DNA of 43,171 nt from a virus (Duplodnaviria > Heunggongvirae > Uroviricota > Caudoviricetes), in IMG/VR virus record IMGVR_UViG_2939121850_000002, positions 1 to 43,171 of that record, one strand, 5' to 3'. The position numbers and the translations under genes are program-made. Shown piece by piece: positions 871-42,163 of this stretch; within the stretch, counting starts at the first letter, position 1; every line of letters starts with the position of its first letter. The notes below the pieces were generated by a model. It was given only the letters and a program-made list of their open reading frames with translations, ran no database searches and was not told the DNA's origin.

Positions 871-1311
871 ACGTAAACTTTTTCCGGTTGTTGTCGATAG
901 CTCTATATCCCTCAACCGGAAAATAATAATAGTAAAATGCTTAGCCCTGCTAATAATCGCCTAATCCAAACGCCTCATTCATGTTCTGGTACAGTCGCTC
1001 AAATGTACTTCAGATGCGCGGTTCGCTGATTTCCAGGACATTGTCGTCATTCAGTGACCTGTCCCGTGTATCACGGTCCTGCGAATTCATCAAGGAATGC
1101 ATTGCGGAGTGAAGTATCGAGTCACGCCATATTTCGCTATCAGGATTCTGTGTGATGGTTACATCGCCCGGCCCAGGGCTGTTTAGTCATCAGCGCTTTC
1201 TGACAGTGCTGAGATTTCAACCTGTTGCAGTAAAAATGAGTAGATATAAGGCAAGTGTGCTGCCAAACCCATCTTTTACGGGGTGAAGGTAGATTTCGTT
1301 TGAAGGGTATC

Positions 1312-1326
1312 TGGTGTCCCCTGCAG
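1312..1326. repeat. Prophage attachment core, left copy (tggtgtcccctgcag); displaced host-type argW 3' end
   Basis: 14/15 identity with the 3' end of argW at 42089-42103 on the same strand; exact shared 11-mer gtcccctgcag. Brackets the whole phage gene set between torI and int. Confidence 0.6.
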
Positions 1327-1399
1327 ACATCTACTTGAAGCGGCAGGGGATTGATTGGAATGGTGTTTTTTAGATGTGAGAAATATTTTACCCGCTATT

Positions 1400-1600
1400 T
1401 TACCCATTGGCGCGGCTTAAGAGCTTATTTTTGAATTCACAATGGTCACGATATAACCATCTTGCTCGCCCGTGGATAACTTTGGCTTTTGGAAGGTCTC
1501 CGGACTTAATCCGAGCATAGATGAAGGTTTTACCGAAGCCAGTATCGGCCATGATGAATTTCAAATCAACCAGTGAATCAGGCTGTAGTTCGTGTTGCAT
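1400..1600 (-). CDS. torI: TorI-like excisionase / recombination directionality factor (AlpA-type winged helix), 66 aa
   Basis: 66-aa protein with FIMADTGFGKTFIYARIKSGDLPKAKVIHGRARWL, matching my recollection of KplE1/CPS-53 TorI. Sits at the prophage end opposite the integrase, as in KplE1. Confidence 0.7.
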   Translation of the reverse strand: MQHELQPDSLVDLKFIMADTGFGKTFIYARIKSGDLPKAKVIHGRARWLYRDHCEFKNKLLSRANG

Positions 1601-1619
1601 GAGTGCTATCTCCGAATAG

Positions 1620-1635
1620 GGAATCGAACCTGCAA
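1620..1635. repeat. Second argW-derived fragment (ggaatcgaacctgcaa, T-arm region) inside the prophage, upstream of torI
   Basis: 16/16 identity with argW positions 42103-42118, same orientation. In the tRNA this segment directly abuts the att core; here it lies 293 bp from the core with torI in between. Confidence 0.5.
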
Positions 1636-1973
1636 ATCAGGCAATAAAAAACCGCATTGATGCGGCGATGGTATGTCTGGATATCTTGAGAAATGAACAG
1701 GCCTCATCGAGTGTGAGGCGGTGTGATTTCTTTATTTCCACTCTTAATGTTTGTCAGTGAATGGTTTCTCCATCTCCATTAATGCCTTATTCATCTCATT
1801 TCGTAACTCTATAGCCATCCTGACGGCTTCAACTTGTGCAGGATGTCGGTTAATTGCTGGAGAATATCGTCGGGAACGAAGGATTGAGAAAACAAAGATA
1901 ATGCAAGCAACTATCTGAATTGCATTGCATGTTATTGATACAATGTGAATTGCAGCCATCTACTACCCAAAAT

Positions 1974-40769: not shown

Positions 40770-41963
40770 TTAATCAACCTTCCCATCAAGCCAGTCCGCC
40801 CACCACTGCATCATTTCTCTGCGCTTATCGAGATACTGAGCATGGTTGTAAATTCCACGCACAGAACCGCCGTTGGCATGTGCTAGTTGCACTTCAATGG
40901 CGTCGGCAGGCCATTCGTGCTCGTTCATAATCGTGCTGAATTCATGCCTGAATCCGTGACCGCTTTCCAGACCTTCATAGCCGATTTGTTTGATCACAAG
41001 CAGTACCGCGTTCTCGCAGATTGGCTTCTTCTTATCGTTGCGCCCGGCAAAAACAAACTCTGAGACTGGTTTGGTTATTGAGCTTAGCGTAGTGAGAAGT
41101 TCAACCACCTGGTCTGACATCGGGACCACATGAATTTTGCGTCCCTTCATCACACTGGCGTCGATGGTGATAATCCTGTTTTCAAAATCGACGTTCTTCC
41201 ATAGCATGGAACGAAGCTCTTTCGTTCTTAGGGCTGTGTAGCGTAAAACTTTGGTCGCAATGAGCGATACGATACTTCCTGAAAATGTTGCCAGTGCTTT
41301 GTTGAATGCAGGGATCTGGTCTGCTGGAAGAAACGGGAAGTTCTTCTTGCGGTATCCTTTCATGGCGTCTGCAAGGTCAGGTGCCGGGTTATATTTAGCC
41401 CTTCCGGTGACAATAGCGTAACGAAAAACCTCGCCGCATCTTCTGCGGGCTTTGTTGGCTCGCTCCATTGCACCGCGATCTTCAAATCTGCGGATTACTT
41501 CCAGCAGTTGCATCGGCTCAATATCCTGAATCTCAAGACCGCCGATGATGGGTAAAATGTCGTCATCAAACATTTTGGCAAGTTCAGTTGCATAGCCTAC
41601 TGACCAGACTTGCTTCTTGTGCTCGTACCATTCCTTGTAAATCGCACTAAATGAATTGTTGTTAGACGAAGCCTTTTTCGCCTTTACCGGATCTATGCCA
41701 ACCGAGATGTCTTTCCTCGCAGTCCATGCCTTATCCCTTGCTTCCTGCAAAGTCATAAGCGGATATTTTCCGACAGTCAGGATTTTCTCCTTACCGTCAA
41801 TCTTGTAGCGAAGCTGCCATACCTTTTTCCCTGATACAGGGACATAAAGGTACAGGCCATTACCATCGAGAAGGCGGTATGGTTTTTCTTTCGGCTTTGC
41901 TGCTTCAATCTGCTTAACGGTGAGCATGGGTAAAAATCCGGTGGGTAAAATTATTTTATCCAC
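40770..41963 (-). CDS. intS: P4-type tyrosine integrase (IntS-like)
   Basis: N-terminus (LTVKQIEAAKPKEKPYRLLDGNGLYLYVPVSGKKVWQLRY) is typical of P4-family integrases; transcribed away from argW. Internal Met at 41927 may be the true start. Confidence 0.85.
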   Translation of the reverse strand: MDKIILPTGFLPMLTVKQIEAAKPKEKPYRLLDGNGLYLYVPVSGKKVWQLRYKIDGKEKILTVGKYPLMTLQEARDKAWTARKDISVGIDPVKAKKASSNNNSFSAIYKEWYEHKKQVWSVGYATELAKMFDDDILPIIGGLEIQDIEPMQLLEVIRRFEDRGAMERANKARRRCGEVFRYAIVTGRAKYNPAPDLADAMKGYRKKNFPFLPADQIPAFNKALATFSGSIVSLIATKVLRYTALRTKELRSMLWKNVDFENRIITIDASVMKGRKIHVVPMSDQVVELLTTLSSITKPVSEFVFAGRNDKKKPICENAVLLVIKQIGYEGLESGHGFRHEFSTIMNEHEWPADAIEVQLAHANGGSVRGIYNHAQYLDKRREMMQWWADWLDGKVD

Positions 41964-42088
41964 TTTTTACCCGTCATGGAGTGCGGCTGTCAACGATCTG
42001 ACGCGAACCATTACGAACTGTTAATCTACGGAAGGCTTGATATTCAGGGGATTTTGCGGACTGGTACGGATGGGAGCGAACTGATAAA

Positions 42089-42103
42089 TGGCGTCCCCTG
42101 CAG
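42089..42103. repeat. Prophage attachment core, right copy, forming the 3' end of argW
   Basis: tggcgtcccctgcag; partner of 1312-1326. Confidence 0.6.
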
Positions 42104-42163
42104 GAATCGAACCTGCAATTAGCCCTTAGGAGGGGCTCGTTATATCCATTTAACTAAGAGGAC
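42089..42163 (-). tRNA. argW: tRNA-Arg (anticodon CCU)
   Basis: 75-nt cloverleaf on the minus strand: acceptor GTCCTCT/AGGGGAC, anticodon loop CTCCTAA, T-arm GCAGG-TTCGATT-CCTGC, encoded CCA end. Confidence 0.9.

Follow-up and report, generated by a model that had tools for sequence, protein, structure and literature searches.

The argW recombination module and its closest described relatives

The module shared by KplE1 (CPS-53), HK620, Sf6, and CUS-3 has reportedly been described by Panis et al. (2007, 2010), Clark et al. (2001), and Casjens et al. (2004), and Menouni et al. (2013) are said to have dealt with Rho control of torI. The arm sites of the integrase IntS are TTTTACCC repeats in which TAAA is essential, and the sites of the excisionase TorI contain GTTCG, GTCCG, or GATCG, through which TorI represses the intS promoter (PMC2951348). 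A 135-bp attR was sufficient for excision by IntS, TorI, and IHF in vitro (PMC3509656). In the 2010 paper on the module, the torI promoter was drawn as uncharacterized.

The window, that is, the entire stretch of 43,171 nucleotides analyzed, carries this known argW IntS/TorI recombination module in a prophage of the HK620/Sf6/KplE1 type, with intS beside the tRNA gene and torI at the far end. As in KplE1 (CPS-53), HK620, Sf6, and CUS-3, int and the excisionase gene lie on opposite sides of attP, and the window has the same integrase (98 to 99% identity), TorI, core, arm repeats, and TorI boxes as these elements, the discriminator base of the tRNA being the only difference. The components of the module are as follows.

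1312 to 1326, plus strand: attR core, bacterial 3' terminus of argW after displacement; discriminator A (core comparison; empty-site and phage matches)
1317 to 1350, no strand assigned: inverted repeat TCCCCTGC (1317 to 1324)/GCAGGGGA (1343 to 1350) across the core and the near P arm (conservation and covariation)
1386 to 1405, plus strand: pair of TTTTACCC repeats of the IntS arm type, which overlap torI at its 3' end (the HK620 "attP" repeat maps here; TAAA)
1400 to 1600, minus strand: torI, excisionase (recombination directionality factor) of 66 amino acids (open reading frame; PDB 1Z4H, E = 8e-42; RefSeq torI annotation)
40770 to 41927, minus strand: intS, tyrosine integrase with arm-binding domain (Pfam Arm-DNA-bind_3, Phage_int_M, and Phage_integrase)
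41994 to 42081, minus strand: P' arm with five TorI boxes of the types GTTCG, GTCCG, and GATCG (sequence; site description in PMC2951348)
42089 to 42103, plus strand: attL core, 3' terminus of the functional argW; discriminator G, derived from the phage (sequence, ARAGORN, core comparison)
42089 to 42163, minus strand: argW, tRNA-Arg(CCT) (ARAGORN)

The integrase possesses the arm-binding domain of the IntS type, adjoins the 3' end of argW, and is 98 to 99% identical to the integrases of Sf6, CUS-3, and HK633. TorI, encoded at the opposite end of the prophage next to attR, is 97 to 98% identical to annotated TorI, and a homologue search with the protein returned only relatives of at least 63% identity, every one of them in the same type of module. 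The P' arm (41930 to 42088) aligns base for base with the attP of HK620 and also with the K-12-type attL. Its TorI boxes, given in plus-strand coordinates, are found at 42077 to 42081, 42057 to 42061, 42014 to 42018, 42004 to 42008, and 41994 to 41998 and, together with TAAA-containing arm sites, overlap the intS promoter (after PMC2951348). At the other end, the arm repeats at 1386 to 1393 and 1398 to 1405 correspond to the HK620 "attP" repeat feature (1441 to 1463), and the records of HK620 and Sf6 annotate the attP core and the arm repeats at matching positions. Modules of this kind are common, since an IntS-type attL at argW was present in 1,870 of 5,426 complete Escherichia coli genomes, or about a third.

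ARAGORN identified a single tRNA gene in the window, namely, argW. An earlier note on this DNA had reported that the att core of argW recurs at the left end; the repeat is present, but the left core (TGGTGTCCCCTGCAG) and the right core (TGGCGTCCCCTGCAG) agree at 14 rather than 15 of the 15 positions. They differ solely in the discriminator base, which is A on the left, in the displaced copy, and G in the functional tRNA; this discloses the side from which each copy stems and places the crossover 5' of that base. The prophage is thus flanked by the duplicated core CTGCAGGGGACACCA(T) of the KplE1/HK620 type; the 16th base of the published core is not repeated in the window because the left flank is unlike that of K-12. 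Empty-site E. coli genomes align with the window up to 1326 and then run into the tRNA, and phage genomes align from 1312 on, so that the att junction remains where it had first been placed.

A number of further observations concern the junctions. (i) Integration altered the discriminator of argW, the functional tRNA ending in phage-derived GCCA and the displaced copy in ACCA (42089 to 42092 versus 1312 to 1315); this exact attL was found in 6 of the best 12 E. coli matches listed. (ii) On the left, the prophage is flanked by the csc sucrose region and on the right by yfdC-like DNA. Between cscB and attR, the bacterial flank contains a fragment of a DUF4942 gene (about 950 to 1132, minus strand), which also occurs in strains with an empty argW and is probably the remains of an older island. 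(iii) A 43-amino-acid open reading frame (1276 to 1407, minus strand) crosses the attR core; its counterparts, hkaB of HK620 and gene 17 of Sf6, both span attP and are cut by integration. (iv) The arms of the inverted repeat at 1317 to 1350, separated by an 18-nt spacer, are kept in nearly all IntS-type att sites and shift together with the core variants of the host, reading CCCCTACA/TGTAGGGG in Rouxiella and TCCCTGCAT/ATGCAGGGA in Edwardsiella. This repeat could represent paired integrase sites or a hairpin that follows torI.

A copy of the argW T-arm segment in the torI leader

The 16-mer GGAATCGAACCTGCAA occurs twice in the window, at 1620 to 1635 and 42103 to 42118, with 16 of 16 positions identical and on one and the same strand. 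The recurrence of this argW segment at the left end, and the location of torI (1400 to 1600, minus strand) between the two left-end pieces of argW, had both been pointed out before, and both stand. The left copy, referred to below as the box, is part of the torI leader, for which the following elements are relevant.

1608 to 1613, minus strand: torI ribosome-binding site GGAGAT, proposed partner of AUU/CC of the box (sequence; hairpin compatibility)
1620 to 1635, minus strand: T-arm box, the 16-mer copy in the torI leader, with the core CAGGTTCGATTCC at 1620 to 1632 (16/16 match to argW; conservation)
1644 to 1666, minus strand: intrinsic terminator just upstream of the box, stem at 1651 to 1666 and T-run at 1644 to 1650 (terminator scan and flank comparison)
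42103 to 42118, minus strand: the genuine argW T-arm segment, original of the box (ARAGORN, exact match)

Read on the torI strand, the box is TTGCAGGTTCGATTCC, and the order of elements is intrinsic terminator, TTGCCTGAT, TTGCAGGTTCGATTCC, CTATTC, GGAGAT, AGCACTC, and ATG. Phages HK022 and HK97 have the terminator and the DNA upstream of it in common with the window and lack both the box and torI. Since this homology begins at the terminator, the box forms the outer edge of the recombination module.

The earlier note had considered a 16/16 match very unlikely to arise by chance, and the numbers agree. Apart from this one, the longest matches between the tRNA and the window were 10 to 12 nt; of 200 shuffled controls, one gave a 16-mer match, and about 0.0014 matches are expected analytically for any 16-mer of the tRNA anywhere in the window. 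Chance is far less likely still if one takes into account that the copy is less than 300 bp from attR, has the same orientation, and abuts the core in tRNA coordinates. The box is not a tRNA gene or pseudogene, as ARAGORN finds argW alone and the resemblance to argW does not extend beyond the 16-mer on either side, and an Rfam search of positions 1200 to 1800 with E values of up to 10 retrieved nothing relevant. The 16-mer is most simply derived from argW, and in that sense it may be called an older att-related sequence.

Conservation of the box among argW modules

The 16-mer is identical and in the same place in KplE1, HK620, and Sf6, and the box is also found at this place in the phage genomes g341c and phiEt88. 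We then surveyed relatives of torI in one genome per species, in viral contigs, and in phage records. About 12 diverged lineages, representing at least six genera, carry CAGGTTCGATTCC with no more than one change and with its end 16 to 19 nt ahead of the excisionase start codon. These lineages comprise prophages of E. coli, Citrobacter, Serratia, Pantoea (two lineages), and Edwardsiella, the phages phiEt88 and Midgardsormr38 of Erwinia and g341c of Salmonella, and several metagenomic contigs. In Midgardsormr38 (locus L003, 2305 to 2335), the box is present in tandem with a period of 16 nt (CAGGTTCGATTCCCGT CAGGTTCGATTCCC).

The alignment of the 12 lineages shows no variation in GTTCGATT and in the last C of the box and very little at the other five positions (CAG, first C); unlike the box, the bases on either side of it vary among lineages. 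The TTG that completes the 16/16 match is restricted to the E. coli group. Among E. coli prophages, common variants lie outside the box, and only rare single variants were seen inside it. The box even precedes an excisionase family that is 39% identical to TorI, in modules whose arm repeats differ (GGGCATA) and whose argW core is the same. When viral contigs were scanned for the box followed by a ribosome-binding site and ATG, every match outside tRNA genes was an excisionase leader. Hosts with a deviating argW T-arm were sought in order to see whether the box follows it; the Edwardsiella-type argW differs in the acceptor stem and has an identical T-arm. In phiEt88 (locus L234, 2785 to 2950) and in the argW attL of L239, the repeats of the P' arm are of the GTTACC type instead of GTTCG boxes, which suggests that the excisionase of this sub-branch may have switched its DNA specificity.

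The conservation across genera argues for a function of the box. The box was absent from about ten excisionase lineages, including those of phages Chronis and EhrS49, so that it is dispensable. It had been considered beforehand that the 16-mer might turn out to belong to an unrelated conserved element. This was half borne out: the 16-mer is part of a conserved element of the torI leader, one that carries a predicted pI annotation in HK620 and Sf6, but every carrier found integrates at argW. The box is carried by the phage and is conserved, and on these grounds it is probably a small control element for torI and not integration debris.

The box considered as an arm site or as a relic in this chromosome

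Two proposals of the earlier note can be set aside. One was that the 16-mer is a second arm-type site; GGAATCGAACCTGCAA contains neither the essential TAAA nor TTTA, the true arm repeats being those at 1386 to 1405. Moreover, attR-IHF2, the outer primer of the published 135-bp attR, maps to positions 1404 to 1423 of the window, so that the sufficient attR ends at 1423 and the 16-mer begins 197 bp outside it. Excision in vitro thus proceeds without the box (PMC3509656).

The other proposal was that the 16-mer is a relic of a previous integration at argW. The gene is indeed busy. In other argW elements (O157:H7, locus L007, 3411 to 3435; L231, 1906 to 1930; L232, 1910 to 1935), the left junction reads TGGTGTCC(C)CTGCAGGAATCGAA and is followed by unrelated DNA; the identity block covers 23 nt and breaks off midway through the T-loop. 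The element of O157:H7 looks composite, as an IntS 97% identical to that of HK620 lies beside argW despite the differing left junction. Stx2-converting phages, inspected at L008 (1320 to 1395) and L009 (3425 to 3449; VT2phi_272) and in Stx2 phage records, rely on another integrase and on the 5' part of argW and duplicate 63 to 73 bases of the tRNA; argW is consequently used at three or more sublocations. Sublocation classes of attP sites in target tRNAs were reportedly defined by Williams in 2002. This traffic, and the DUF4942 gene fragment in the bacterial flank, would be in line with a relic in this chromosome, but the 16-mer is internal to the phage and occurs in the phage genomes of HK620, Sf6, g341c, and phiEt88. 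A chance match, with an expectation of about 0.0014 per window, would in turn leave the conservation across genera unexplained. We consider relic and chance match alike to be highly improbable.

Possible roles of the box in the control of torI

The box is phage-borne, conserved, and located in the torI leader between terminator and ribosome-binding site at the edge of the module. The best explanation of these data, to which we assign a probability of roughly 0.5, is that it descends from the argW T-arm and has a putative role in the control of torI. As to how such control might be exerted, we tentatively propose, at somewhat less than even odds, that the box forms the 5' side of a hairpin in which the ribosome-binding site is masked. 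In transcripts that extend past the terminator into torI, GGUU and AUU/CC of the box would pair with AACC (ACU in E. coli) and GGAGAU. This pairing would bury the torI ribosome-binding site and, in E. coli, also the AUG; hence, TorI would be made only at high transcript levels, and accidental excision would thereby be guarded against.

The fold GGUU..AUU.CC/GG.GAU..AACC is predicted in most lineages, and 92.6% of the cells in the comparison of 12 lineages are compatible with hairpin pairing, as opposed to 29 to 60% for slid partners. In Serratia, the box is lengthened to UUCCUG and faces a ribosome-binding site of the sequence CAGGAG. The folding energies of the leaders are ordinary, with z-scores from +0.1 to -2.2 and no excess over shuffles. 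No covariation was detected in the hairpin among the 12 lineages, since both of its sides are nearly invariant; the unpaired positions of the box (CG) are invariant as well. An RNA role alone gives no reason why the box should be identical to the target tRNA. We also considered a local T-arm-like RNA hairpin as a general feature of the leader and rejected it, as only the Edwardsiella, Serratia, and phiEt88 lineages form it well.

Three other readings assign the box to DNA rather than to RNA. The records of the relatives point to pI, in which case the 16-mer would be the spacer of a cII-activated promoter that drives int on the circular genome during the establishment of lysogeny. The HK620 record marks a "promoter, phage integration" (window positions 1607 to 1645) and a cII site TTGC-N5-TTGC (1632 to 1644), the Sf6 record marks pI at 1616 to 1643, and the last four bases of the 16-mer coincide with the proximal TTGC half-site. 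These annotations are predictions, however, and a sigma-70 scan of positions 1200 to 2100 detected no promoter-like site. The proposed -10 element, CCCTAT, is poor and reads CCCAAA or CCCTGT in relatives, and the TTGC repeats are spaced by N5, whereas the canonical cII site of lambda has N6. Furthermore, the repeats are missing from the Edwardsiella and Pantoea stewartii loci and from the viral contigs L159 and L221, in which the box is kept, and conservation would fall on the spacer, which in a promoter is ordinarily under the least constraint. We regard a promoter of this kind as unlikely.

The two remaining readings see in the box a binding site for a protein. If the box copied the attB half-site for the core-binding domain of IntS, binding of IntS might regulate torI or aid the integration complex at attP. 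This would account for the identity to the tRNA as well as for the restriction to argW modules despite differing arm-site and excisionase specificities. IntS has two domains with separate arm-binding and core-binding parts, and TTCGAT is kept in the core-adjacent phage site of relatives; if the core is read as GATGTC-TGCAGGG-GACACC, the attB half-site GATTCC falls inside the box. On the other hand, integrases usually bind a lone core-type half-site weakly, excision works with the 135-bp attR that lacks the box, and several functional-looking modules have none; we regard this role as doubtful. It seems still less probable that the box is an operator through which TorI represses its own gene. 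TorI represses the intS promoter by way of GTTCG, GTCCG, and GATCG (PMC2951348), the box contains GTTCG, and in several lineages a second GTTCG, GTCCG, or ATTCG is located 12 nt downstream, overlapping the ribosome-binding site. Yet the conservation runs on through ATTCC, which is absent from the P' arm sites, sites I3 to I5 are spaced by 10 nt and not by 12, and modules of the phiEt88 type, with P' repeats of the GTTACC type and no GTTCG, nevertheless keep GGTTCGATTCC in the leader.

Origin of the box

In the DNA adjacent to the core, distant relatives read GTTCGAT-GTA-TGCAGGGGACACCA, in register with GTTCGAT-TCC-TGCAGGGGACACCA of the tRNA. Such an in-register remnant of the T-loop was observed in at least 8 lineages, the corresponding sequence of phage Chronis being CAGGTTAGAT; as the decayed form of this site, E. 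coli phages have GTAGATGTC and relatives have TTCGATGTA. It follows that an ancestral tRNA-like block has decayed in place beside the core. In Serratia and Pantoea, the copy in the leader continues into CCTG, and the two tRNA-derived pieces overlap by 10 to 12 nt, so that a duplication is needed and a clean cut by torI is inadequate. From these alignments we infer that the phage has two copies of the argW T-arm, the first lying beside the core and the second, which overlaps it in tRNA coordinates, being the box. The duplication could have its source in repeats made by an insertion or in the integration of an element into the tRNA-like attP of the phage itself.

The earlier note had envisaged an ancestral att duplication of about 30 bp that was later split by the acquisition of torI. 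The tRNA ancestry is retained in the reading above, whereas the clean split conflicts with the overlap of the pieces and with the T-loop remnant beside the core. A clean split would mean that some 30 contiguous bases of argW were present in the ancestral attP and that 293 bp containing torI and the arm sites entered precisely at the boundary of T-arm and core. The pieces do abut in tRNA coordinates in E. coli phages, with an overlap of 1 nt, but this exact abutment is specific to the E. coli group, and the conservation is limited to CAGGTTCGATTCC. A contiguous block from T-arm to CCA next to int, as in the distant P4-type phage Klebsiella Kp4866-6, makes a longer ancestral identity plausible; of the three next relatives sampled, two (Kp4866-6 and Stenotrophomonas S1) have one T-arm-like stretch next to int, which extends to CCA only in Kp4866-6, and phiV10 has none. 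On balance, an exact split is improbable.

The IntS clade (at least 61% identity) is found at argW only, and its next relatives are at most 37% identical and have another gene order. No second example of a displaced T-arm copy, at another tRNA, was encountered among the three relatives sampled. The part of the leader 3' of the box was also considered as a decayed acceptor stem; GGAGA does align with GGACA, but in register only 4 to 6 of 14 positions are identical, not a significant number, and the idea was dropped. A more speculative and quite unlikely scenario would combine role and origin: the box would copy the attB half-site so that occupancy by the integrase gates expression of the excisionase, and the segment of torI and P arm, bordered on both sides by tRNA-derived repeats that overlap, would be the fossil of an element nested in the tRNA-like attP of the phage.

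Comparison with known systems

The recombination system as such is already known, and the addition made here is the reading of a segment of the torI leader as a conserved copy of the argW T-arm. We found no such description of this segment in the part of the module literature that was covered or in the HK620 and Sf6 records. The silencing of TorI in lysogens and its switch-on at induction are the least understood part of this well-studied module, and the box, which is short, strongly conserved, and situated just before the ribosome-binding site, offers a concrete and easily mutated candidate for the control of torI. Its tRNA ancestry would be a trace of how attP was remodeled in the IntS clade from the usual contiguous block that reaches from T-arm to CCA.

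That usual arrangement is represented by the attP sites of the P4 family, in which phage DNA next to int is identical to the tRNA from the T-arm to CCA, as seen in Klebsiella Kp4866-6; Stenotrophomonas S1 has the T-arm-like GGTTCAATTCC next to int. In the IntS clade, by contrast, the contiguous identity comprises only 14 to 16 nt, the adjoining T-loop part is degenerate, and an intact copy of the T-arm is located about 290 bp away, beyond the excisionase gene. In lambda, the elements pI and sib/tI act in cis around att and set whether Int alone or Int and Xis are made from the circular and the integrated genome. The leader in the window resembles them in that short cis elements surround att, and there is no sequence similarity; whereas sib acts on the stability of the int mRNA, the hairpin proposed here would act on translation of the excisionase. 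The "boundary sequences" of lambdoid phages, which Clark et al. reportedly proposed in 2001, are said to be defined by their conservation at module edges with no reference to tRNA. The box, too, is situated at a mosaic junction, the bsq2 feature of the Sf6 record covers torI together with its leader, and leaders with the box are common to modules whose excisionases are only 39% identical.
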